Source: Archangium sp. (lineage in GTDB: Bacteria; Myxococcota; Myxococcia; Myxococcales; Myxococcaceae). Taken from it: a DNA stretch of 20,896 nucleotides. The notes beneath the pieces were generated by a model, which did no database searches, was not told the DNA's origin, and saw only the letters and a program-made list of their open reading frames with translations. Where the stretch lies: NCBI GenBank assembly GCA_016792935.1, contig JAEUJS010000455.1, positions 1 through 20,896 on the forward strand, in the 5' to 3' direction. A program made the position numbers and the translations under genes. The stretch's first letter is position 1; each line of letters starts with the position of its first letter. This document shows, piece after piece, positions 572 through 20,817 of the stretch.

Positions 572-3500
572 GTGCTCGAGCCGTCTGCCCCGCCCCCGGG
601 TCCACTTCCGGAGCCCAAACCAGTTCCCCCGCCCGTCTCGTCCGACGGGCGCGCGTTGCGTCTGCTCGCCGAGGTCCGCGCCGCGCAGGCCCGCGCGCTG
701 TGGACGCAGGGGCTGCTCCTCGGGCTCATCGTCGCGCTGGTCTTCCTCGTCGCCGGCTCGTGGGTCGGCGCGTCGCACGCGCGCGTCGGGCTCGGTGTCC
801 TCGTCAGCGGCGGACTCTTCTCGTTCGCGGTGCTGGCGTGGTTCGGCGTGGTGTTGCCCCGCCGCAAAGTCGGAGACGACGCGCGCACCGCGAAGCTCCT
901 CGCCGAGCGACTCCCCGAGCTGAACCTCGACCTGCTCGCCGCGGTCGAGCTGAGCAAGGCGCTCGGTCGCACCGGCGAAGACTTCTCACCCGAGCTGGCC
1001 CGCGCCTTCTTGCGCGACGTCGATCTACGCGCCGCGAAGTTGTCGGTGCAGAAGCTCATCGACCAACGCCCCACGCAGCGCGCCGCGATGTCGATGGTGG
1101 CCACGGTCTTCGTGGTGCTCACCCTGTTGGTCGTGCAGGGCAAGAAGCTGCGCGAGGGGTTCGCCGCGGCGGTGACTCCGGCCGAGAAGACCGAGCCGTC
1201 GCGACGCCAGCCCATCACCGGTGACGTCGAGCTGACCTACCGCTACCCCGCGCACACGGGCCTCGAGCCGCGCACCATCGCGGGCAGCACGGGCGACGTC
1301 AGCGCGCCGACGGGCACCGAGGTGACGTTCAAGACGCGCGCAGACCGTGACGTCGAAGCGGCGGCGCTCATCTTCGGTCCCGCGGGGACGCGTGTGCCGC
1401 TGCGCGTGGACAAGCGCGAACTCATCGGCAGCTTCGTGGTGAACGAGAGCGGCGTGTTCCACGTGGCGTTCCTCAGCAAAGCCCCCTGGGGCGACGCCGT
1501 TGGGTTGCAAGACGGGACGGACCCTGTCGCCGAGGGGCCTGATCAATCCGTCACCGCGGAAGTCGATCAGCCGCCGCAGGCGCGCATCTCCGCGCCGGTG
1601 GACAACCTCGAGCTCGACCCCAAGAAACAGGTCGTCACCGTGAAGTTCGACGCCAGCGACGACTACGGGCTCACCACGCTCGACCTCGTCTTCACGCCCG
1701 TCGGCGGCAAGACGCAGCGCGTGTCGCTCAAGCCCGACGATGGCCGCACCACGCGCGGGAGCTACCAGTGGGACCTCGCGCCCCTCGCGCTCAACCCCGG
1801 CCAAATCGTCACCTACGCGCTCGAGGCGACGGACAACGACGCGGTGAAGGGCAACAAGAAGGGCACCTCCACCACGATGCGCCTCAAGCTCTACAGCTCG
1901 GCGGAGCATCGACGTGAAGCGCTGCAGAAGGCCGAGGTGTTGTGGACGCGTCTCATCGACCACCTCGCTGACCGCATGGAAGGTCCCGACCGAGCGCAGG
2001 CGACCAACGTCCCGCCTTCCAAAGGCTCCGTGGGCTCGGGGCTCGACGCGATGGTGACGGGCAAGCCGGTGGACGAGCGCGGCACGGTGCTCGCGACCGA
2101 CTTCATTCAGCTCGCGCACGACCTCAACGAGGAGCAAGACCCGCCGCAAGAACTCCTCGCCGCGATGCAGAACGTCGGTACCGAATTGCGCGACGACGTC
2201 GGTCAGGTGTCGACCAATCGCAACTTCCTCCTGCGCTTGAGTGGCCGCATCGCCGCGCCCAACGGCAAGACACAGTTCGTCGACCCGCGCGCGGGCTCGT
2301 ACACGCAGGACCTGCAGCGGCGTGTGTCCATCTCCATCGAGACCGACATCAAGCACTCCGAGAAGAACGTGCTGTACCTCGAGGCGCTGCTCGACCGCGC
2401 GCGGCTCGACGCCATTCGCGAGCTCACGCGGCAGCTGCGCGACGACCGCCAGGAGCTCTCGAAGCTGCTCGACGAATACAAGAACTCGCCCGACCCCGAG
2501 AATGGGCAGCGGCTGCTCGACCAGATGGATGCGCTCAAGCAGCGCATGGACGACCTGCAGAAACGCATCGCCGAGCTGTCGTCGAAGATTCACGACGACT
2601 TCATGAACGCGGAAGCGCTCCAGGAAATGAACCGTGAGTTCGACATGAACGACGTGTTCGCCGACATGGAGAAGCTCATCCGCGAAGGCAAGGCCGACGA
2701 AGCGCTGCGTCGCATGCAGGAATTCTCCATGCAGATGGACCAGTTCCTCGAGAACCTCGACCGGGCCGAAGAGCGCGCCGAACAACAGATGGACCCCGAG
2801 CTCGCGCAGCAGTTCACCGAGTTCCAGGACAACCTGCAGGACACCATCGACAAGCAGGACCAGCTCTCCGAGAAGACGCGGCAGCTGCGTGACAAGTACC
2901 GCGCCGCGCAGAAGGAACGCATCGCGAAGCAGGGTGAAGCGCTCAAGAAGGAACTGAAGGAAAAACTCGCCGAGCTCGAGAAGAGCTGGTCGCAGGGAGA
3001 GCAGCGCTACGGCGCCGAGTTCAAGGAGAAGCTCCGCGAAGCGCAGCAGTCGCGCGCCAACGTCGGGCAGTCGCTCGAGGCGAACGACTTCGACCTCGCG
3101 AGCGAGGCCGCCGAGTCGATGGAAAAGCGCGCGTGGGAGATGTCGTCACTCGCCCAGGAGATGTACCGCTGGGAAGACTCCCCGCAGAACCCGCCCGAAT
3201 ACCGGCGTGAGGCGCGTCAGAACGCCGAGAAGTACGCGAAGGACGCGAAGAAGGCGGCCGAGATTTCCTCGAAGCTGCGCGACCTCTTCCCGCAGCCCGG
3301 TCAGCAGATGAGCGAGGCCGACCGCCAGCAGATGAACGAGCTCTCGCGTCAGCAGAAGCAGCTGCAGAACCAGGCGGCGCAGTTGCAGCAGCAGATGGAC
3401 GACATCAACGAGCGCGCTCCCATCTTCAATCAGGACTCGATGGACCAGGCGCAGCAGGCCGGTCAACGCATGCAGGGCGCTGGAGAGAAGCTGCAGGGCA

Positions 3501-5856: not shown

Positions 5857-7059
5857 TCATTTGACGGGCACGTAGCTCGTCGGCACGCCGCCGTTCTTCA
5901 CCAGCTCGTGAAACGTCTCGACGGCATCGGTCGCCTTGCGCTGCAGCGTGGCGTCGGTGCGCACGTCGACCGTGAAGAGTCCGAACCGATTCCGGTAGTC
6001 GCCCCACTCGTAGTTGTCGGTGAGTGACCAGTAGTTGAAGCCGATGACGTCGATGCCTTCGTCGCGCGCGCGCTGCAGCCAATAGATGTGGTCGCGCAAA
6101 TGGTTGCTGCGCGTGTAGCCGTCGCGGCGCGGCAGTCCGTCGTCGGTCGCCATGCCGTTCTCCACCACGTACAGCGGCAGGTGCGGAGCGCGTGCGTGGT
6201 AGTCGCGCAGCGCGGTGAGCAACTCGCTCGGGCGGAAATTCACGCGCCAGAATTTGCCGCGACCGGCGTGCGCGACGGACAGGTCGAGCGTGAGCGCGTA
6301 GTAGTAGTCGAGCGCGATGAAATCGACGTGATGTGCGACGCGCTCGAAGAACCAGTCGTCGAACCAGCTCGCGGGTGCTGGTTCCCACACGACGTTGGTC
6401 GAGACCGGAGCGCCGGCGTCTTCACGATGCAGCAGATCGAACGCGACGACGTGCATCTGAACGAGCCGTGCCTTCGCGCGCTCGACCTCGGCGTCGGGGA
6501 CGGAGCCGTGTCGGCGTTCGAGCGTGAGGAAGTAGGACGCTTCGTTGAGCGTGACCCACCGTGCACCTCTCGAGCGGTAGCGCCTGGCGACCACTTCGAC
6601 GAAGTCGCGAAACGCGCGAACGATGGAATCTGAAGCGAGTCCTCCTTCGTCGAGCACCCAGCCGGGCGTGACGAAGTGCAACAGCGTCGGCATCGGCGTC
6701 ATGCCTCGCTCGCGGAGTGCCTCGAACATTTGGTCGTAGTGCCGGAGGGCCTCTTCATCGACCACGCCGCGCCTGGGCATGACGCGCGCCCACTCGATGG
6801 AGAAGCGGAACGTGTCGACTCCGAGTGAGGCGGCGAGCGCGATGTCGTCGCGGAAGCGGCGGAAGAAATCGACCGAGTCGGCGTACGGCTCGTGCGCGGT
6901 GCCCGGGCGCGTCGTGTAGCGAGTCCAGTTGCTGTCGGGGAACGAGCCCTCGCTCTGAAATCCGGAGGTCGCGACGCCCCAATGAAAGTCTTTGGGGAGC
7001 TTCGAGACGGGCACCGCACAACCGCTCACCACCAACGAGATCAGGAACGCCGTCCGCAC
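5857..7059 (-). CDS. Glycoside hydrolase family 1 beta-glucosidase, predicted lipoprotein.
   Basis: GH1 hallmarks: FHWGVATSGFQSEG near the N-terminus, VTLNEASYF (acid/base Glu), YVVENGMA (nucleophile Glu), FNYWSLTDNYEWGDYRNRFGL. I place the start at GTG (7059) giving MRTAFLISLVVSGC, an n-h-lipobox leader 8 aa before the GH1 domain. The track ORF extends to 7326, but codons 7060-7326 are AT-ending/rare and antisense to the 7142.. gene. Confidence 0.88.
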   Translation of the reverse strand: MRTAFLISLVVSGCAVPVSKLPKDFHWGVATSGFQSEGSFPDSNWTRYTTRPGTAHEPYADSVDFFRRFRDDIALAASLGVDTFRFSIEWARVMPRRGVVDEEALRHYDQMFEALRERGMTPMPTLLHFVTPGWVLDEGGLASDSIVRAFRDFVEVVARRYRSRGARWVTLNEASYFLTLERRHGSVPDAEVERAKARLVQMHVVAFDLLHREDAGAPVSTNVVWEPAPASWFDDWFFERVAHHVDFIALDYYYALTLDLSVAHAGRGKFWRVNFRPSELLTALRDYHARAPHLPLYVVENGMATDDGLPRRDGYTRSNHLRDHIYWLQRARDEGIDVIGFNYWSLTDNYEWGDYRNRFGLFTVDVRTDATLQRKATDAVETFHELVKNGGVPTSYVPVK

Positions 7060-7141
7060 ATTTCGAGCGTAGCGGGAGAGGGGGAACTCGCGCGCTGCGC
7101 TCAGGCGAGTACTGTCGTGTTCGCAGGTCCTGGGAGATTCC

Positions 7142-7840
7142 ATGCACATCGACGGCTTCTCGGTCGACGCCTTCCGGCGCACGGTCGATGACGACCAGAT
7201 CGTGGTCATCGCGCTCGGGGACGAGCCGGCCGCGCTTCGTGAGCGACTCGGCGGCAACACCGAGACGTGGCTCACCTCGACCTCGCCCCACGCCGCCGAG
7301 CTCGACGTGCTGTTCGGTCGCCCCACCGGACTCCCCGAGCTGCTCTTCGTGCGTCACGGCGTCATCGTGCGCTGGTGGCTCGGCCATTCCGGCTCGCTCT
7401 CATCGCTCGACGTGAAGCCTGACATTGAGGCGCCGTTCACTCCGGAGCGCTACCGCGCATTGGTCGACGAAGTGCGCGCGCTCAGCGACGTCGAAGCTGC
7501 GTGGAGAGAAGTCACTTCGTGGCGCGAACTCCCCGACACGGTGCCGACCGCGTACGCGTTCAACGACGAGACGCTCCGACTCGAGCGCGGCGGCGCGGCG
7601 AGCCAGCGTCACAAGAACGGAGAGCTCCTCGGCACGTGGAGACTCCGCAGTGACGGCGACCTCGACCTCTTCTGGAAACGCTTCGTGCGCGAGAACGACG
7701 AAGGCACCGAGACCTCCGAGCTGGACCGACGCGAGGTCTGGCAGCTCGGTCAACGCGACGGTCGGGTGCAGGTGAGACCGACGCGCGGTCTGCTCCCGCG
7801 GCTCACGGCCTCGCACCGTGTCTTCATCGCCGACGCCTGA
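7142..7840 (+). CDS. Hypothetical protein (232 aa).
   Basis: ATG 7142 with high GC3 over the whole frame and no recognisable motifs. It is divergent from the GH1 gene with an 82-bp intergenic region if GH1 starts at 7059. An alternative in-frame GTG at 7202 cannot be excluded. Confidence 0.6.
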   Translation: MHIDGFSVDAFRRTVDDDQIVVIALGDEPAALRERLGGNTETWLTSTSPHAAELDVLFGRPTGLPELLFVRHGVIVRWWLGHSGSLSSLDVKPDIEAPFTPERYRALVDEVRALSDVEAAWREVTSWRELPDTVPTAYAFNDETLRLERGGAASQRHKNGELLGTWRLRSDGDLDLFWKRFVRENDEGTETSELDRREVWQLGQRDGRVQVRPTRGLLPRLTASHRVFIADA

Positions 7841-7852
7841 CCAATTCCGCCC

Positions 7853-8668
7853 TCAGCGACGCGATGCCTTCACTTTGATGCCCAGCTTGTCGAAGCGCCG
7901 CAACACGTCGCGCTCGAGTGACTTCTCGTAGACCTTCGTCCGCTCGGCGTTCTTCAGATGTCCGAAGGGATTACGAGGCGACTCGGTGTCGTCGAAGTCG
8001 CAGCCCTCGAACACCGCCTCTCTCGCGCTCTCCAGGTCCATCGTGATGCGCTTCTCGACGCGCTTCTTCTCGCGAGCGTTGAGCACCGGCCACAGCTGCG
8101 CGAGCAACGTCCACCCCAGCTGCGAGTGAAACGACTCATCGCGCGTCAGCGCCGTCACCACTTCGCGCGCCAGCGGGTCTTCCGTCACGTCACGCGTCGC
8201 GGCGAGCAGCGCGGTGGACAGAGTCTCTCCGATGCACAGACTTCCGGTGAGCGTCTGCACCGCGCGCACCCGCAGCGGCTCCGCTGAATCACTGCGCACC
8301 CACTTCGGCTCGCCGGGAATCTCGTCGGTGCCGCCAAGCGCGTTCACCAATCGCCGGCACAGCTCGACGTGCCGTGCTTCATCGCGCACCACGCGGACCG
8401 CGGCGGTCAACGTGTCGAACGCGCAGCCCAGCTCCGTCAGCTCGAAGAGGAACTCGGTGAAGCCGACCTGCGAGCGATACTCGTCGAGCGTGCGCAGCTG
8501 CCACGACTCGCGCGCCCAGCTGATGGTGTCTTCGTCGTAGCGGCTCGGGTCGAACGCCTCGAACGACTTCGCGTGCAGCGCCTCGGGCAACGCCTCGTCG
8601 AAGAAGCGCCGCTGATTCGTCGCGAGTCCGGAGTCGGCCGCGCCGAGGTGAAGGATGGGCTGCGTCAT
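7853..8668 (-). CDS. Ferritin-like diiron-carboxylate superfamily protein.
   Basis: Two ExxH motifs (VRDEARHVELC and TRDESFHSQLGW), each preceded by a helix carrying a Glu (LDEYRSQ; CIGETLS). This is the E/ExxH/E/ExxH arrangement of AurF/MiaE/Coq7-type four-helix-bundle oxidases. I place the start at ATG 8668 (MTQPILHLG) because the 16 codons upstream to GTG 8716 are AT-ending. It lies 4 nt downstream of the Lys-rich gene on the same strand. Confidence 0.7.
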   Translation of the reverse strand: MTQPILHLGAADSGLATNQRRFFDEALPEALHAKSFEAFDPSRYDEDTISWARESWQLRTLDEYRSQVGFTEFLFELTELGCAFDTLTAAVRVVRDEARHVELCRRLVNALGGTDEIPGEPKWVRSDSAEPLRVRAVQTLTGSLCIGETLSTALLAATRDVTEDPLAREVVTALTRDESFHSQLGWTLLAQLWPVLNAREKKRVEKRITMDLESAREAVFEGCDFDDTESPRNPFGHLKNAERTKVYEKSLERDVLRRFDKLGIKVKASRR

Positions 8669-14035: not shown

Positions 14036-16057
14036 ATGTGCCCTGATGAGAACGAGTTGCTGAAGTTCGCGAGCGGTGCCGCGGGTGAGCTCCCGGCCCT
14101 GGAAGCGCACCTCGACGGTTGCGAAGACTGCCGGCGTGCAGTGGCGGCGGCGGCTTCAGAGCGCACCCTGCCGACGCAAGCCGTCACGCACACGCTCTCA
14201 CCCGGTCAGCGCGTCGCCCGCTACGAAATCGAGCGCGAGCTCGGCCGCGGAGGCATGGGCATCGTCTACCAGGCGCGCGACGTGACGCTCGATCGCCGCG
14301 TGGCGCTCAAGCTGCTGCACGCGCGCCGAGATGAAGCGGCACAGGCCCGACTCCTCCGCGAAGCACAGGTGATGGCGAAGCTCACGCACCCCAACGTGGT
14401 GCCGGTCTTCGAGCTGGGCGAGTGGAAGAGCGACCTCTACCTGGTGATGGAGCTGGTGAACGGCGTCACGCTCGAGCAGTGGTTGAAGCGCGAGAAGCAC
14501 CGCCGCTCCGACATCATTCATGCCTTCGTTCAGGCGGGCCGTGGACTCGCCGCTGCACACGCAGCGGGCGTGGTGCACCGCGACTTCAAGCCAGCGAACG
14601 TGTTGGTCGGTGGTGATGGCCGCGTGCGCGTGACCGACTTCGGGCTCTCGCGGCCGGGACCTGCGCTCGAGCTCCCGGCGACCGACAGCGCCGTCGTCAC
14701 GCGCGACGGAGCCATCGTCGGCACGCTCGCGTACATGTCTCCCGAGCAGATCGACGGGAAGACGGCCGACGAGCGCAGCGACCAGTTCTCATTCTGCGTG
14801 TCATTGGTGGAAGCGCTCAGCGGCCTGCGTCCCTTCGAAGGAGAGAACTGGGCGCAGCTCGCGCAGGGTCTGGCCAAGAAGCCGCGCCTCTCTGGAGTGC
14901 CGCGTGCCCTGCGCTCCGTTCTCCGCAAGGGCCTCGAGCGAGATGCGTCGCGTCGCTACACGTCACTCACCGCGTTGCTCAACGCCATCGAGCGCAGCCA
15001 GCAGCTCGGGTGGAGCGCCGTTGCCGCCACCGCCGCCGCCGCGCTCGTCGCCGCAGGGGTGTATTTCTTTCCGACGCTCGCTCCGCAGCCGGCGGCGCTG
15101 GGCAAAGACCTCGTTCCCATCGTCGTCGCCAGCCGCGACCTGCAACCCGGCACCGTCGTCACCGCCGACATGCTCGAGCAACAAGTGATGCCGAGGGAAC
15201 GCGTCACCACCTCGTTCGTCGCGCACGACTCGCTCAGCTACATCCTCAATCAGAAGGTCATCGTGCTGGTGCAGAAGGGCGACCCCATCACCTGGCAGCA
15301 GTTCGAGACGGCAGACAAGCCGAGCCTCGCGAATGAGGACTACGTGCCAGTGGTGATGGCCGCGGTGGACATCGTCGACGGCACGACCGTGACGATGGAG
15401 ATGATTCAGCAGCGCAACATGCCGTCGATGTACGTCACCAGCTCGGTCATCAAGCCCGACGCCGCGTCGTACATCGTGGGGCAGAGAATCCTCGTGCCGG
15501 TGCAGAAGGGCGACGTGTTGCTGTGGTCGCAGTTCGAGACCATCAAGAGCAACACATCGATGGTGACGGTGATGGTGGCCGCTCGTGATTTGCCCGAGGG
15601 CTCGGTGCTCAGCAAAGACCGCGTCATGCAGGAAGAGATCCCCGAGTACATGGCGACCAGCTCGGTGATGCGGCCCAGGCAGTCGGGGCACCTCTGGGGT
15701 CACGCGCTCAAGGGCAAGCTGCGCAAGGGCGACCTGATTCTGTGGAGCAATCTGTCCGACGAGATGTTCATGGAAGACGGGCTCGACGCGAACTCGGTGA
15801 CGGAGCTGGTGAAGAAGAACATGAGCTCGCTCGCGCCGTGTCTGCAGAAACCGCCGCTGGGCGTGCCCCAGACGAACATGGTGTGGAGCGTTCATCCCGA
15901 TGGCTCCGCGTTCGACGTGCACCTCGAAGAGAAGGACCTCACCGGCAGCGAGCTCGAGTCGTGTCTCTCGAAGGCGGTCACCGCGCTCAGCTTCCCGAAG
16001 TCGAAGCGGCCGACGGTGGACGCGTCGCTGCAGTTGGTGTTCGCACCGGCGCAGTGA
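14036..16057 (+). CDS. Ser/Thr protein kinase with an N-terminal anti-sigma-type zinc finger (HxxxCxxC), one TM helix and three tandem SAF/CpaB-like extracytoplasmic repeats.
   Basis: ATG 14036 preceded by AGGAGG at -11 to -6. The track GTG 14012 lies inside that SD. LEAHLDGCEDCRRAV zinc-finger motif. Hanks kinase motifs GRGGMGIVYQA, VALK, HRDFKPANVL, DFGL, GTLAYMSPEQ. TM segment WSAVAATAAAALVAAGVYFF. Three ~90-aa repeats (…VVASRDLQPGTVV…, …VMAAVDIVDGTTV…, …MVAARDLPEGSVL…). Confidence 0.9.
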   Translation: MCPDENELLKFASGAAGELPALEAHLDGCEDCRRAVAAAASERTLPTQAVTHTLSPGQRVARYEIERELGRGGMGIVYQARDVTLDRRVALKLLHARRDEAAQARLLREAQVMAKLTHPNVVPVFELGEWKSDLYLVMELVNGVTLEQWLKREKHRRSDIIHAFVQAGRGLAAAHAAGVVHRDFKPANVLVGGDGRVRVTDFGLSRPGPALELPATDSAVVTRDGAIVGTLAYMSPEQIDGKTADERSDQFSFCVSLVEALSGLRPFEGENWAQLAQGLAKKPRLSGVPRALRSVLRKGLERDASRRYTSLTALLNAIERSQQLGWSAVAATAAAALVAAGVYFFPTLAPQPAALGKDLVPIVVASRDLQPGTVVTADMLEQQVMPRERVTTSFVAHDSLSYILNQKVIVLVQKGDPITWQQFETADKPSLANEDYVPVVMAAVDIVDGTTVTMEMIQQRNMPSMYVTSSVIKPDAASYIVGQRILVPVQKGDVLLWSQFETIKSNTSMVTVMVAARDLPEGSVLSKDRVMQEEIPEYMATSSVMRPRQSGHLWGHALKGKLRKGDLILWSNLSDEMFMEDGLDANSVTELVKKNMSSLAPCLQKPPLGVPQTNMVWSVHPDGSAFDVHLEEKDLTGSELESCLSKAVTALSFPKSKRPTVDASLQLVFAPAQ

Positions 16058-16102: not shown

Positions 16103-16909
16103 ATGGCACGTGAGAAGCCGCTGAGCACCGCACGCCGTCTCGAGAGAAGTCTTCCGAAGTTATCGCCGCTGATGCGCGAGGCGTACGCCTCGATGTGGAC
16201 CGACGCGCAGTGCGATGCGTGGGGCCGGAGAACGAAGGGCCCCGAGGTCGCGAAGCAGGCCAACGACTGGCTGCAGCTCGCCGACAAGGCGCTGCGCGCC
16301 GAGGGAGCAGAAGACATCCCGTGGTCGCGGCAGAGACTCGCGTGGGTCGCGTCGCTGACGGTGCAGCTCGAGAACGAGCTCGCGGGGAAGCTGGACGATG
16401 AGAGCTCCGCGGCGCGGCATGCGCGTGACGAGCACCTCGCGGCCGCGAAGCATCTGCGCGCGAAGACGTTGAGCCGCATGTCCTTGCTCGTCGGCGGCAA
16501 CGGAGAGCGCGGCGCGGCGCTGGCAGTGGCGAACAAAGACAGCTGCAACGCTGACGAGGTCGCCTCGACGCTCGGTGCGCTCGCCAACTTGCTGCATCTG
16601 TGGCGAATGGAAGCGCGCCTGCGGCTCCTGGCAGACGAGCTGGGGCTCGATGAGACCGTGGTGCGTGGGCTGCGTGAGTCGAAGAGTCAGCTGGCAGAGG
16701 CCGAGCTGAACGCGGCGAGCCTGCGTCCGTCGCGCGGTGATGGGCCCGCGCTCAACCGCGTGGAAGGAAGGTTGCTCCGCGAGTTGCGCGCGCTGCAGCT
16801 CGCGTTCGGAATGGCGCGCGACCAGGGGCTGAATGCGCCGAAGTTGCCGGTGCGGGCGGCGCTCAAGTCGATCTTCTCGAGTCGGCAGTCCACCGAAGTC
16901 GAGGAGTAG
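16103..16909 (+). CDS. Hypothetical alpha-helical protein (268 aa).
   Basis: ATG 16103, high GC3, A/L/E/R-rich without recognisable motifs. The antisense ORF 16160..16915 is Arg-rich nonsense. Confidence 0.55.
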   Translation: MAREKPLSTARRLERSLPKLSPLMREAYASMWTDAQCDAWGRRTKGPEVAKQANDWLQLADKALRAEGAEDIPWSRQRLAWVASLTVQLENELAGKLDDESSAARHARDEHLAAAKHLRAKTLSRMSLLVGGNGERGAALAVANKDSCNADEVASTLGALANLLHLWRMEARLRLLADELGLDETVVRGLRESKSQLAEAELNAASLRPSRGDGPALNRVEGRLLRELRALQLAFGMARDQGLNAPKLPVRAALKSIFSSRQSTEVEE

Positions 16910-16937
16910 TCGCACGCACTCCGCACGAAGCGACGCT

Positions 16938-17357
16938 GGAGGCGCACGCAGTCACGCCGGAGGCGCACGCAGTCGCTCGGGAGCTGCACGCAGTCTCGCC
17001 GGAGCCAAACGCAGTGACCCCGGAGGCGCACGCAGTGACTCCGGGGGCGCACGCAGTCGCTTGGGAGCTGCACGCAGTCACGCTGAAGGCGCACGCAGTC
17101 ACGCCGGAGGCCCACGCAGTCACGCCGGAGGCCCACGCAGTCACGCCGGAGGCGCACGCAGTCGCTTGGGAGCTGCACGCAGTCTCGCTGAAGGCGCACG
17201 CAGTCACGCCGGAGGCCCACGCAGTCGCTCGGGAGCTGCACGCAGTCCCGCTGGAGGCGCACGCAGTCACGCCGGAGGCGCACGCAGTCACGCTGGAGGC
17301 CCACGCAGTCGCTCGGGAGCTTCACGCACTCACGATGGAGGCGCACGCAGTCACGCC
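16938..17357. repeat. Intergenic tandem repeat array: 20 contiguous 21-bp units (consensus GGAGGCGCACGCAGTCACGCC) with higher-order 42/63-bp organisation.
   Basis: Units counted by hand; all are exactly 21 bp with core GCACGCAGT invariant in 18 of 20. Variant classes recur as B-C pairs (…CAGTCGCTCG GGAGCTGCACGCAGTCNCGCY). There are no spacers, so it is not CRISPR. All six frames are open across it, which explains the spurious ORFs 16833..17921, 17014..17499, 16687..17535 and 16863..17291. Confidence 0.95.
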
Positions 17358-17596
17358 GGCTTCCAGCCGCCGCAGTCGCGACTCGGCCACCAGCCCCGCG
17401 CGCCGTACCTGCACGGTCGCTCGAGGCCCTACCTGTCGTGGCCATGCACCCCGGTGTCCGCGTGCGTCCTGCACGGCGAGCCGACGAGCGCGGTGGTGAC
17501 GGCGCGGCACCTCGCGACAAGTCACCGCTCATCATGCGTGGCGAGTTCGCCTTGCGACTCCCGAGCGTGTCTCGTCCAGCCCGTTAGACTCCCGCC

Positions 17597-18031
17597 ATGC
17601 GAGACATCATCCACACGCTCGAGCAGCAGCACCGCGCCCTGGAGAAAGAAGTCGCCATGCTCGAAGGCGCGCTCGCAGCGAAGAGCGCGCGTGGCGTCCG
17701 CTCCGCGCTCGACAAGCTCGAAGGCATGCTCACCGTGCACTTCACGCTCGAGCAGAAGGAGTTCTACCCGCCGTTCCTCCAGCGCGTGGAACAGGCAGAC
17801 CCCGAAGCCAACAAGCTCGTGCTCCTCTTCCACCAGAACCTCGAGCGCATCGCGCTGGGCGTGCTCGCCTTCTTCCGCCGATGGAACGGCGAGCTCGAAC
17901 CCGCGCGCCTCTCCGAGCTGAACGGAGAATGGAAGACCACGCTCAAGGTGCTGTCCGGCCGCCTGCGCGACGAAGAGAAGGTGCTGCACCCCATCTACGT
18001 GCGCCTGTTCGGAGCGCCTCCGACGAGCTGA
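17597..18031 (+). CDS. Hemerythrin-like (HHE cation-binding) domain protein.
   Basis: LTVHFTLEQKEFYPPFL and HQNLERIALGVLAFF are typical of bacterial hemerythrin-like four-helix-bundle proteins. 144 aa. ATG 17597. High GC3. Confidence 0.7.
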   Translation: MRDIIHTLEQQHRALEKEVAMLEGALAAKSARGVRSALDKLEGMLTVHFTLEQKEFYPPFLQRVEQADPEANKLVLLFHQNLERIALGVLAFFRRWNGELEPARLSELNGEWKTTLKVLSGRLRDEEKVLHPIYVRLFGAPPTS

Positions 18032-18813: not shown

Positions 18814-20817
18814 TCACTTCTTGAAGAACGTCTTCTCGATGTCCGCCAACTCGGACCAGCACTTGTCGGGCGCCGCGCTGCAGTAGCGCGCCTCGTCGAG
18901 CTGCAACTTCGCTGCGCGTCGCAGGTCTTCCGGCAACGTCTTCGCGCGCTGATTCAGCTCACGCCACTTCTTGTTCACGTCCTTCTGCGTGTGCCGCTCC
19001 GCCTTCGCCGGAGCCTTCGGTTTGGGGGGCTGCGGCTCGGGTTTCACCACCTCGACCGGCTCCGGCTTCACCACCTGGACCGGCTCGGGCTTCTCCACTT
19101 CGACCGGCGGAGGCAGCTCGACCACCGGCTTCACTGGAGGCCGCGGTGTCTCATCAGGAAGACGCAGCGCGACGAACGCACCGCCAAGCACCGCAATCAC
19201 ACACACCAGCGCGACAGGCACTTTCCAGCTGCCGCCACCCTGAGAGGGATGTTCATCGGTGGTCTCGCGCGACGCCGCATCGGCAGCGGGCGCCACGGGA
19301 CGCACGCGCGTGGGAACGACTCCGGCCGCGAGCGCTTCGCCCAGCCGCTCGAGCTGCTCCTTCACTTCCTGCGCGGACGCGGGCCGTTTCTGCGGGTCTT
19401 TCTCGAGCAGCCGCATCACCAACTTGTCGAACTCCACCGGCACCTGCGGAGCCGACGTGCGCAACGGCCTGGGCGCCAACGTGCGATGCGCGTCGAGCAG
19501 CTCGTGCAGGTTCGCCGAGGTGAACGGCGGATGACCACTGAGCATCTCGTACAGCACACAGCCGAAGCTGTAGAGGTCGGTGTACGGCCCGACGTTCTCT
19601 CCGCGCGCCTGCTCGGGAGCGACGTACAGCGGCGTGCCTCCCACGCTCGTCTGCCGCAGCGAACGCGCGCCCTTCTCACCGCGCCGCGCGAGCCCGAAGT
19701 CGAGCAGCTTGGGAAACACCGAGCCGTCGTGGAGCTTCAGCAGGAACACGTTGCCTGGCTTCAGGTCGCGGTGAATCACGCCCGCGGCGTGCGCAGCGCC
19801 GAGCCCGCTGAGCATCGGAATGCAGATGGACAACGTTTCCTTCGGGCTGAGCGGCGCGCGCTCGGCCAGCACCTGCTCGAGCGATTGTCCCTCGAGCAGC
19901 TCCATCACCAGGAAGGCGTCGCCCGCGGGGGTCTCGCCGAAGCTGAAGACGTCGATGATGTTCGGGTGCCGCGCGATGGACAGCGAGCGCGCTTCCTCGA
20001 GGAAGCGACGCGCGTGGTCGGGGTCATTCGCGTACTCGCGGCGCAGCAACTTGATGGCGACGGGCCGGCCGATGACGGGGTGCTCTCCGCGGTACACGAC
20101 GCCCATGCCCCCGGTGCCGAGCGGAGCGAGGACGCGGTACTCGCCCAACATCGCGCCGATGAGTGGGTCGGTCGCGCTGCTGATGGCGCGCACCGTCGTC
20201 ACTTCGAGCGGAGCCGCCGGCACATCAGGGCCCGTCACCAGCTCCGGCTGACGTCGCACGGCCGGAGGATCGACGATGGCCGGGTTGGCGCGAATCACCG
20301 CGGGCCGTCGCTGCGTGGCATCGGCATCACCCGGCTCCGCCCACGGCACTTCATGGCGACCCGTCAGCTGATCTCGCTGAACGGTGGAATCGAGACCGGC
20401 GTCCACTCCCGCGTGCGTCGGAGGCGGAACGATGTCGCGCGAGTGTCGACGCACGGTCCGCTCGAACGCGCCTTCCTCGCTCGGAGGCGGAACGAGGTCG
20501 CGCGAGTGCCGACGCACGGCTGAATCAGCAGGCGAGCCGGCTGCGTGACGCGGGTCCAACGGTGCACCTTTGTCTCCCGCATCTCCCGCGTGCGCGGCGT
20601 GTTGTGTCGTCGAGACCTCACGTGACTGACGTCGCGCGTTCGGGAGCGCGGCCTCTCGCACCGTCGGCGCGTGCGGCTCCTCGTCGATGGTGAGCGCCGC
20701 GTGCGCAGGCCGCGCCATGGACGGGTCGGTCGGTGCGTCTCCGCGCGCGGCCTTCAGGCGCTCCAGAACACCGTCATCGTGTGCGTCGTCGGTGGCCATC
20801 AGAGTTTGTTGAACCAC
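18814..20817 (-). CDS. Ser/Thr protein kinase with a disordered repeat-containing N-terminus, one TM helix and a Pro-rich (VVKPEP) extracytoplasmic tail.
   Basis: Kinase motifs GTGGMGVVYRGEH, VAIKLL, HRDLKPGNVFL, DFGLARR, GTPLYVAPEQ. TM VPVALVCVIAVLGGAFVAL. The start is GTG 20817 or ATG 20799 (M7). Confidence 0.9.
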   Translation of the reverse strand: MVQQTLMATDDAHDDGVLERLKAARGDAPTDPSMARPAHAALTIDEEPHAPTVREAALPNARRQSREVSTTQHAAHAGDAGDKGAPLDPRHAAGSPADSAVRRHSRDLVPPPSEEGAFERTVRRHSRDIVPPPTHAGVDAGLDSTVQRDQLTGRHEVPWAEPGDADATQRRPAVIRANPAIVDPPAVRRQPELVTGPDVPAAPLEVTTVRAISSATDPLIGAMLGEYRVLAPLGTGGMGVVYRGEHPVIGRPVAIKLLRREYANDPDHARRFLEEARSLSIARHPNIIDVFSFGETPAGDAFLVMELLEGQSLEQVLAERAPLSPKETLSICIPMLSGLGAAHAAGVIHRDLKPGNVFLLKLHDGSVFPKLLDFGLARRGEKGARSLRQTSVGGTPLYVAPEQARGENVGPYTDLYSFGCVLYEMLSGHPPFTSANLHELLDAHRTLAPRPLRTSAPQVPVEFDKLVMRLLEKDPQKRPASAQEVKEQLERLGEALAAGVVPTRVRPVAPAADAASRETTDEHPSQGGGSWKVPVALVCVIAVLGGAFVALRLPDETPRPPVKPVVELPPPVEVEKPEPVQVVKPEPVEVVKPEPQPPKPKAPAKAERHTQKDVNKKWRELNQRAKTLPEDLRRAAKLQLDEARYCSAAPDKCWSELADIEKTFFKK

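Follow-up and report, generated by a model that had tools for sequence, protein, structure and literature searches.

A 21-bp tandem array in Archangium sp. and its linkage to the upstream hyp268 gene family of Myxococcota

A row of near-identical 21-bp repeats lies between a gene of unassigned function and a hemerythrin-like gene in a 20,896-nucleotide stretch of Archangium sp. DNA (hereafter the window, meaning the whole stretch analyzed), and this locus raises the question of what the repeats are and to which of the neighboring genes they belong. An earlier note on the same DNA had called the array non-coding and had placed it by the gap in front of the hemerythrin-like gene. We examined the array unit by unit, compared it with related loci, and weighed the readings that could account for it.

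Structure of the array in the window

The array occupies positions 16938-17357 on the plus strand and consists of 20 contiguous, head-to-tail units of 21 bp. TRF and the unit table agree with the earlier description on this count, and the unit table contains no indels within the 20 units; TRF reports period 21 at 16922-17359 with 20.9 copies, 78% matches and 0% indels, which puts its start of the array at 16921/16922. Twelve units lie within three mismatches of the consensus, GGAGGCGCACGCAGTCACGCC, against 0.00 expected from 100 shuffles, and a scan of the window with this consensus found no other occurrence elsewhere in it. Columns 9-13, 15 and 18 are invariant in all 20 units, which bears out the nearly invariant core noticed before. 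Each unit is composed of two boxes: Box 1, which in the window reads GCGCACGCAGTC where the family core has CGACGCGCAGT, and Box 2, which in the window reads CCGGAG and straddles the unit junction. The array region is about 70% GC (69-74%), compared with 66% for the window, and it contains no AT-rich stretch. A search for sigma-70-like promoters and intrinsic terminators yielded none, either around the array or in the spacer that follows it.

Some of the units vary in a regular order. Units ending in GCT[CT]G (named ‘B’) are followed by a unit starting with GGAGCT (named ‘C’) in five of five cases, just as the earlier note had said of the variant units. The first B-C unit pair, seen in the unit table and in the 84-bp TRF period, lies at 16959..17000 on the plus strand, and the remaining pairs begin at 17043, 17148, 17211 and 17295. 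The superstructure of 42-63 bp proposed before did not hold up, however, as the B-C pairs are spaced 63-105 bp apart (84, 105, 63 and 84 bp) and the best long period found by TRF is 84 bp, with 83% matches. In the B-C pairs, five linked substitutions convert the junction from CGCC-GGA-GGCG to GCTC-GG-GAGC, and the pairs probably represent a higher-order duplication unit.

The array does lie between the stop codon of the upstream gene (16907-16909) and the start of the hemerythrin-like gene as claimed, but it does not fill this gap. The remainder consists of a degenerate leading unit or units at 16910..16937 on the plus strand, straight after the TAG stop and with the core-like sequence TCGCACGCACTCC, and of 239 bp of unique sequence at 17358..17596 on the same strand, which reaches from the array to the hemerythrin-like start. 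This spacer is not conserved, being unalignable with the same region of two relatives (L008 and L061), and it is outside the element. A 13/15 complement of the B-C junction sits 30 nt 5' of the hemerythrin-like start.

Linkage of the array to the hyp268 gene family

The gene that ends at the array, hyp268 (16103..16909, plus strand), encodes a 268-aa protein without an assigned function. We ran TRF on 27 loci of the hyp268 family, 221 kb in total, and counted as an array any repeat with a period of 20-22 and at least 3.5 copies. Such arrays were found in 16 of the 27 loci, every one of them within 400 bp 3' of the gene, and none was found in the rest of the 221 kb. Additional chains of cores were found by eye in L019 and L065. 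The orientation of the array is that of the gene in all cases, and in several loci the two are fused: in L010, L024, L011 and L064 the first core, TGACGCGCAGT, begins with the stop codon TGA, and in L068 the stop codon TAG lies within the first core. The window array is among the three largest that we saw, where arrays assembled from short reads may be collapsed. The assembly trouble that the earlier note had foreseen is real, since short-read contigs (L001-L007 and L071) stop at or inside the array, so that it breaks such assemblies straight after the hyp268 gene.

The closest view of the surroundings comes from L008, an annotated long-read relative with the gene order of the window: sigma factor, kinase, hyp268, gap, hemerythrin. 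Its gap of 1115 bp contains 21.3 copies of another 21-bp unit, GGCTTCGCGAGCGTGCGTAGT, and its locus lies at 6.81 Mb on a 9.42-Mb contig, JASGKS010000001.1; judged from this relative, the setting of the window locus is likewise chromosomal. In the window, the hemerythrin-like gene is at 17597..18031 on the plus strand (Pfam PF01814, E = 3.5e-11), the ECF-type sigma factor gene at 13250-13915 on the plus strand (TIGR03001, E = 9.5e-59), and the Ser/Thr kinase gene, with Pkinase and SAF domains, at 14012-16057 on the plus strand. These neighbors are not constant. Three loci alone (the window, L008 and L061) have the hemerythrin-like gene downstream, and L014 has it upstream in divergent orientation; the downstream genes of other loci are an aldo-keto reductase gene, an aldose epimerase gene or convergent genes. 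The sigma factor-kinase context is confined to the window and L008, with the kinase also present in L001 and L061, and the upstream place is taken in other clades by a CBS-domain gene or by further genes. An AAA_21 ATPase gene on the opposite strand of the window (12062-13027) is a window-specific insertion. Because the neighbors vary while the gene-array pair is constant, the partner of the array is the hyp268 gene and not the hemerythrin-like gene; the earlier placement, by the gap in front of the hemerythrin-like gene, missed this main point, that the constant partner is the upstream gene family.

The pairing is not without exceptions. There is no array in L016-L018, only one or two units are left in L015 and L064, and the array of L061 is degenerate. 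Arrays also differ between close relatives: L010 has eight units and L024 has five with proteins that are 98.9% identical, and the array of L002 differs from that of L003 despite identical proteins. In addition, one unrelated locus without a hyp268 gene (L054) carries an array of 43 units of 21 bp whose core is similar.

Searches beyond these loci argue against a common dispersed element, which had been named as an identity that would overturn the earlier interpretation. The two-unit pattern of the window gave no match in 185,579 GTDB species genomes and none in metagenome contigs, both of which are sets that do not include the window genome, and this result together with the absence of other 20-22-bp arrays from the 221 kb led us to reject that identity. 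For an unbiased scan of metagenomes, we used the pattern GACGCGCAGT-N11-GACGCGCAGT, which matched 37 metagenome loci with L024 as the sole true relative. Of the multi-unit arrays among them that were read, most encode heptads with Asp-Ala-Gln (L029, L035, L039, L044, L045/L050, L052 and L056) or are unrelated iteron-like repeats (L031 and L059), and most of the remaining matches are bare two-core matches. As the scan returned mostly non-relatives, the 10-mer at 21-bp spacing is not specific alone. The same pattern had no match in viral contigs.

The hyp268 protein itself has 54 close homologues of 183-308 aa, mostly about 240-300 aa, all of them from Myxococcota-type MAGs, and a profile search gathered a family of 228 clusters at 50% identity. 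No match was found in Pfam, NCBIfam, PADLOC or PHROG. The AF2 model (pLDDT 85) is all-helical with 12 helices. No DNA-binding fold such as a helix-turn-helix, winged helix or ribbon-helix-helix can be recognized in it, and generic helical bundles were the only results of fold searches. Invariant arginines of the protein are R78, R108, R125, R136, R168, R223 and R226. The family is basic, with a pI of about 9-10. An N-terminal extension of 20 aa or more occurs in 83 of 187 relatives with the N-terminus present, and in 70 of these 83 its net charge is at least +4. These extensions are of the type MAAKKK..AKKAPAAK or KAAKK/PAKK (examples are MAAKKKSTAKKAPAAKA... and MAKPKKSTKKGPKTKKPAAPKGKA...), and they are Lys/Ala/Pro tails like those of histone H1 and of a DNA-binding type. 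Lys/Ala/Pro tails of this type bind DNA in HupB, AlgP, Hc1 and the CarD family. The hyp268 protein of the window has no basic tail. With tblastn, we found no homologue on 72,556 plasmids and no match on phages, and we rejected a defense, phage or plasmid origin of hyp268 on these results and on the lack of a PADLOC or PHROG family. The coding sequence contains a core, GACGCGCAGTG, as well, at its invariant W-T-D-x-Q-C-D-A-W motif and only where the variable residue x is Ala; we take this to be a coincidence, as the clades with the strongest arrays carry GACAAACAATGC at that motif.

Conservation of the units and candidate readings

In most clades, the core is (C)GACGCGCAGT, and the forms in the window (GCGCACGCAGT) and in L003 (GTGCGCGCAGT) are derived from it. 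To describe which parts of the unit are kept, we used 44 units from six loci whose inter-core parts have diverged (L012, L013, L014, L019, L065 and L066). In these units, an 11-nt contiguous core block is 77-100% conserved and the G at +15 is 91% conserved, while positions +9 to +14 are variable and the 9-10 nt between cores have diverged. The core-to-core spacing is 21 with two exceptions of 22, and the conservation shows no 3-nt periodicity. The inter-core part nevertheless keeps (C/T)CCGG(A), often TCCGGA, at a fixed position, and the center of the CCGG box is ~11 bp from the center of the core. The same core is common to clades whose proteins are only 57-64% identical, whereas the flanking intergenic DNA is unalignable even at about 70% protein identity and also between the window and L008. 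Since the core is kept between clades with unalignable flanks, neutral decay cannot explain it, and since the conservation holds between species, concerted evolution is no explanation either; the comparison indicates that selection on the array acts at the nucleotide level. The earlier remark that the array is unlike a decaying minisatellite is thus well founded: the core and the 21-bp spacing are kept in orthologues whose upstream proteins are 55-68% identical to that of the window, and the flanking intergenic DNA of those orthologues is unalignable.

Among more remote hyp268 relatives, the period is kept and the unit sequence is different. L021 and L068 have about seven copies of a 21-bp unit with the core CGTC[CG]GTAG, L023 and L069 have about 6-11 copies of a 21-bp unit with AAGTAAGTCCGTAC, L070 has 20 copies of a 22-bp unit that contains a 12-bp palindrome, TGGGCATGCCCA, and L020 has a different repeat of about 120 bp. 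Two of these, L020 and L023, are paralogues in one MAG (CAYWON01), each with a different array. Superperiods of 42 bp with near-identical ‘spacers’ occur in L012, L066 and L069, and the inter-repeat part of the arrays in the window, L010 and L011 hardly varies.

The explanation that we favor, to which we give about an even chance, is that the array is a row of phased bipartite DNA sites for the adjacent hyp268 protein. The array would then be a non-coding cis-acting element with ~20 bipartite protein sites, and of the functions suggested earlier a binding-site array fits. One 21-bp unit would correspond to two turns of B-DNA carrying an asymmetric Box 1 and a short palindromic Box 2 (CCGG), and with the box centers about one helical turn apart, all boxes would point to one side of the helix. 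The best candidate for the ligand is hyp268, the product of the gene whose stop codon borders the array. Its support comes from the linkage to the gene amid changing neighbors, the period kept by remote relatives with other unit sequences, the nucleotide-level selection, the fixed CCGG box, the basic family with its charged tails and the lack of a structured RNA; binding itself, DNA instead of RNA as the substrate and the role of the complex are inferred. The protein, made beside its own sites, may coat the array cooperatively to give one large nucleoprotein complex per chromosome, which could serve as a landing pad, a titration sink or an organizing site. Slippage would alter the number of units, homogenize them and yield the 84-bp higher-order blocks. 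Several observations weigh against binding by hyp268: the AF2 model lacks a recognizable DNA-binding fold, the protein of the window lacks the basic tail, and the L054 array, with its similar core, has no hyp268 gene. The protein can also do without the array, as the loci with no units or one or two units show, and this counts against the binding model. The 21-bp spacing is weaker evidence than it seems because slippage alone keeps a period.

We next consider the other readings in the order in which they withstand the evidence. The first is that the array works as RNA: transcribed as the 3' part of the upstream gene, it would stay unstructured and serve as a sponge with many sites for the protein, as its autoregulatory platform or as a guide-type array; in the guide-type version, it would be processed into short units like TIGR-Tas arrays or type III antitoxins. 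Direct contact or overlap with the stop codon, together with an orientation that is always that of the gene, would also suit a co-transcribed 3'-UTR element, and we consider this reading unlikely, if the most durable of the alternatives. The structured RNA that the earlier note had suggested is a different matter and was rejected. Compared with dinucleotide shuffles, the MFE z-scores of the array are +6.05 for the plus strand and +3.33 for the minus strand, meaning that the folds are less stable than those of the shuffles, and in most orthologous arrays z is about 0. Rfam gave no match at the array and only a chance miRNA match (E = 4.5) outside of it.

The second is that the array is a neutral or nearly neutral VNTR, in which a slippage-prone 3' gene end keeps regenerating duplications and the array, without a function, yields copy-number noise and assembly breaks. 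The differences in copy number and composition between near-identical strains (L010 and L024; L002 and L003) would follow from this, as would the homogenized units and higher-order duplication blocks of the window, the loss of the array in some members (L016-L018, L064), and the fusion of the first unit with the stop codon of the gene, which resembles MIRU-type intercistronic repeats. However, the 11-nt core, the CCGG box and the exact spacing are kept across clades at 57-64% identity while the intervening 9-10 nt and the flanks are randomized, and independently arising arrays would not recur at one family with a 21-22-bp period and be absent from ~200 kb of other sequence. We therefore hold a neutral origin to be improbable.

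A third reading keeps the site array and changes the protein, so that the sites would belong, for instance, to a global regulator, a nucleoid protein or the ECF sigma factor and kinase, with hyp268 no more than a conserved neighbor, or the array would regulate the hemerythrin-like gene. This would agree with the lack of a known DNA-binding fold in the hyp268 model, with the sigma factor and kinase genes directly upstream in the clade of the window, and with the complement of the B-C junction in front of the hemerythrin-like start. Yet the sigma factor, kinase and hemerythrin-like genes accompany the array in one clade only, whereas the array follows the hyp268 gene everywhere and the downstream genes vary and are sometimes convergent. 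In addition, the array sequence tracks the protein clade, and paralogues in one MAG differ in their arrays; such co-change of array and protein, and the separate arrays of paralogues, are expected of a cognate pair and not of a shared global factor. We regard a different protein as rather improbable, and regulation of the hemerythrin-like gene was rejected since neither this neighbor nor the spacer is conserved.

A more speculative reading, which we hold to be about as improbable, is a new kind of two-part chromosomal system of Myxococcota, either a single large sequence-programmed assembly on a private array (a centromere-like or anchor-like organizing site on DNA) or a guide-like, Nop-independent analogue of TIGR. 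The guide-like option draws on the short variable inter-core segments in L012-L014 and L019.

The remaining reading, a coding heptad repeat, is hardly credible and was largely refuted already. It holds that one frame (EAHAVTP, GGARSHA or, on the minus strand, RDCVRLR) either is a genuine gene or extends the upstream protein at its C-terminus. All six frames had been described as open, but only three are, namely plus 1, plus 2 and minus 3 (GGARSHA, EAHAVTP and minus RDCVRLR); plus frame 3 contains four stops, minus frame 1 one stop and minus frame 2 ten stops. The three frames without stops over 420 bp speak for coding, and so do a G-to-C change at unit position 7 that leaves the amino acid unchanged in the EAHAVTP frame alone, the differences of the L003 unit at positions 3, 6 and 9, which are synonymous in the GGARSHA frame, and frame ‘A’ (xTRSxxx), which is open in every orthologous array. 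Against this, the 52 differences between units fall on third positions 16, 15 and 21 times across the three frames, which gives no wobble excess; the EAHAVTP frame has no ATG, GTG or TTG ahead of unit 4; the GGARSHA ORF (16833-17921) overlaps both flanking genes; and in L013 and L014 the frame changes from xTRSxxx to xDAQxxx at units of 22 bp. The conserved block is contiguous and includes A- or T-ending codons that are rare in a 66% GC genome, the Pfam matches of the ORFs are below threshold, no gene was called in the 1115-bp gap of L008, and the hyp268 homologues, at 183-308 aa and mostly about 240-300, leave no room for a repeat extension. These lengths, and the fact that the gene's own frame stops in unit 4, also led us to reject a C-terminal extension, readthrough or frameshift into the array. 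The non-coding call of the earlier note therefore stands on the absence of codon periodicity, the frame-shifting 22-bp units of the orthologues and the uncalled gap of L008; on this evidence the array is non-coding, and the long ORFs that it creates in three frames are spurious, among them a 282-aa minus-strand ORF at 16687-17535 and a 362-aa plus-strand ORF at 16833-17921. Z-DNA, a G-quadruplex, a Shine-Dalgarno sponge (GGAGG) and an ECF promoter were, on inspection of the sequence, rejected as well, their motifs being short, unconserved between clades or wrongly spaced.

Comparison with known repeat systems

Our search of the literature on 21-bp repeats in myxobacteria found nothing relevant, and the pairing of gene and array in Myxococcota was previously undescribed. 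We therefore compared it with known systems in which tandem repeats accompany a protein gene.

Type III antitoxins have repeats of 34-45 nt in 2-6 copies, located upstream of a gene for an RNase of the ToxN/AbiQ fold and behind a terminator. Type III toxin-antitoxin systems (ToxIN, CptIN, TenpIN) are like the hyp268 loci in combining a protein gene with a tandem repeat in varying contexts. The hyp268 repeats, in contrast, are 21 nt long, reach up to 20 copies and lie downstream, and the protein is a helical bundle without a PADLOC match, so that repeat length, position and protein fold all differ and this identity was rejected.

MIRUs are 40-100 bp long, are dispersed at dozens of loci and are not bound to one gene family. 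The MIRU-type VNTRs of mycobacteria share with our arrays a high GC content, units that follow or overlap the stop codon in the orientation of the gene, copy-number differences between strains and a unit length that is a multiple of 3. The window array, however, has a 21-bp unit, and such arrays are found only behind the hyp268 family (0 elsewhere in the 221 kb). We rejected a MIRU-type VNTR as the intercistronic stop overlap and the variable copy number are there and dispersal was not found in the window, the family loci, the GTDB species genomes and the metagenome contigs searched.

TIGR-Tas arrays consist of 8-12-nt repeats and ~9-12-nt variable segments beside a helical protein (PMC12045711; bioRxiv 10.64898/2026.09.09.750476). 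The hyp268 arrays resemble them in having 5-15+ units and in lying downstream of the gene or running into it. They differ in that there is one repeat type (11-12 nt + 9-10 nt) instead of alternating edge and loop repeats, in that the half-unit is 21 nt against 18, and in that the segments between the repeats contain a conserved CCGG and, in the window, differ very little from each other. The hyp268 profile showed no Nop-domain similarity (hhalign probability 0.1% against 21 Tas Nop-domain sequences), Pfam gave no Nop match for the family, and no box C/D-type covariation was seen in the hyp268 arrays. We also found no spacerA + rc(spacerB) targets in the available locus flanks, which is weak evidence as it covers the flanks only. 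With no Nop domain, no alternating repeats and constrained, near-identical ‘spacers’, TIGR-Tas was rejected.

Two further systems consist of rows of protein sites. Iterons are direct repeats of 17-22 bp, about two turns apart, in ~5-10 or more copies; the gene of their binding protein lies next to them, and their sequence is specific to the replicon. Those of P1 (incA, downstream of repA), R6K, pSC101, RK2 and F are like the window array in being 17-22-bp direct repeats with ~21-22-bp phasing. The window locus differs from them in being chromosomal, judged from the 9.4-Mb contig that carries L008, and in lacking a plasmid homologue, hyp268 is all-helical with no Rep or winged-helix match, and the window array is about 70% GC with a bipartite unit. 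We found the phased repeats but neither a Rep initiator gene nor a plasmid or origin location, and we rejected a plasmid iteron/Rep origin module.

Tandem-repeat centromeres include parC of R1 (10 x 11 bp), sopC of F (12 x 43 bp, downstream of sopB), parH of TP228 and tubC. In these partition systems, a tandem row of sites lies beside the gene, in F downstream of it, of a small site-binding protein that coats the row into one large complex; the layout of the window locus would fit this if hyp268 is indeed the binding protein. The sequences are specific to each of the related systems, as they are among the hyp268 arrays. Unlike these systems, the hyp268 loci have a chromosomal setting and a protein with no ribbon-helix-helix or ParB helix-turn-helix match, and no ParA, ParM or TubZ-type NTPase is conserved beside the gene-array pair in the neighborhoods compared; for want of this partner, a partition centromere of the parC/sopC type was rejected. 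If the pairing of hyp268 with its array is true, an unannotated protein family gains a predicted ligand in its own downstream site array, whose specificity would appear to shift by clade while the two-helical-turn spacing is kept. This would give a handle on genome organization or regulation in the large genomes of Myxococcota, and the array would represent a chromosomal, NTPase-less relative of the phased site arrays of iterons and centromeres.

Hairpins and repeats flanking the arrays at other loci

In one clade, a REP-like hairpin (CTCCCTCTCCC-TTCG-GGGAGAGGGTCGGGGTGAGGG) lies between the end of the gene for the 268-aa protein family, the constant partner of these arrays, and the array of 21-bp units itself. 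Three of the compared loci carry two copies of the hairpin (L012, 6795-6832 and 7113-7150; L014, 6805-6848 and 7026-7071; L066, 3763-3797 and 4001-4035), and because the second copy is inverted and lies 3' of the array, the array is bracketed by 35-38-nt inverted repeats (83-97% complementary). The reading frame of the gene continues into the hairpin in L012 and L066. The element was also found in L001, L013, L017-L019 and L065.

Other repeats accompany the arrays elsewhere. L008, the long-read relative with the gene order of the window, has two copies of a ~55-nt element (11525-11665 and about 11778-11840; pattern ccgctcacgtt.ggggtg.t.caatctgtacatgcccgggcag...) in the stretch that separates the array from the hemerythrin gene, with inverted repeats inside each element; it has no counterpart in the window and no Rfam match. 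In remote clades of the family, further direct repeats of ~100 bp lie 3' of the 21-bp arrays, at about 6985-7090 and 7200-7300 in L021 and at about 3190-3270 and 3400-3480 in L069/L023 (L069 coordinates).

Arrays at unrelated loci and other repeats in the window

A non-coding array of 43 units of 21 bp (unit GGGACACGCAGTCGGCTTGGC, 71% GC) occupies 1190-2103 of the 2.4-kb contig L054, on which there is no relative of the 268-aa protein. Its core resembles that of the window array, and it is placed after an unrelated 202-aa gene; L054 may represent a second class of array-bearing locus, or the resemblance could be due to chance. The palindromic iteron-like units of L059, a metagenome contig of 48% GC (GTGTAGAC[GT]C[GA]CAGTCTACAC, 7825-8115, 21- and 33-bp periods), surfaced solely through the 10-mer scan and are unrelated to the window array.

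Within the window, 17553-17567 (TGCGACTCCCGAGCG), ~30 nt 5' of the hemerythrin ATG, is complementary at 13/15 positions to the junction of the linked B and C variant units (CGCTCGGGAGCTGCA). The repeat search matched this site to two of the five junction copies, and the complementarity may be a chance one. A 24-bp repeat at 19033-19108 (3.2 copies, 86% matches) lies inside a Ser/Thr kinase gene (18814-20817, minus strand) and is presumably a coding repeat.

Genes upstream of the array in the window

An ECF-type sigma factor gene (TIGR03001, Myxococcales family 1) followed by a Ser/Thr kinase gene occupies 13250-16057 (plus strand). The kinase has two SAF domains and, at its N-terminus, a weak match to zf-HC2 (anti-sigma-like), and the pair may constitute a kinase-linked sigma module ahead of the 268-aa gene in the window's clade. 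The gene at 9232-11484 (minus strand) encodes an MVP-like protein of 750 aa that has the shoulder and vault repeat domains of the major vault protein (PF11978, E = 3e-31) and shares 88.6% identity with its L008 counterpart; such a gene is unusual in a bacterium.

Between the MVP-like and sigma factor genes, L008 has only one called 60-aa gene and lacks the AAA_21 ATPase gene and 188-aa partner gene found in the window (11499-13027, minus strand). The partner has no family match, and the ATPase resembles HEC-01A/AriA (PADLOC, E = 2.6e-27); together, the two genes resemble a candidate defence module acquired by insertion.
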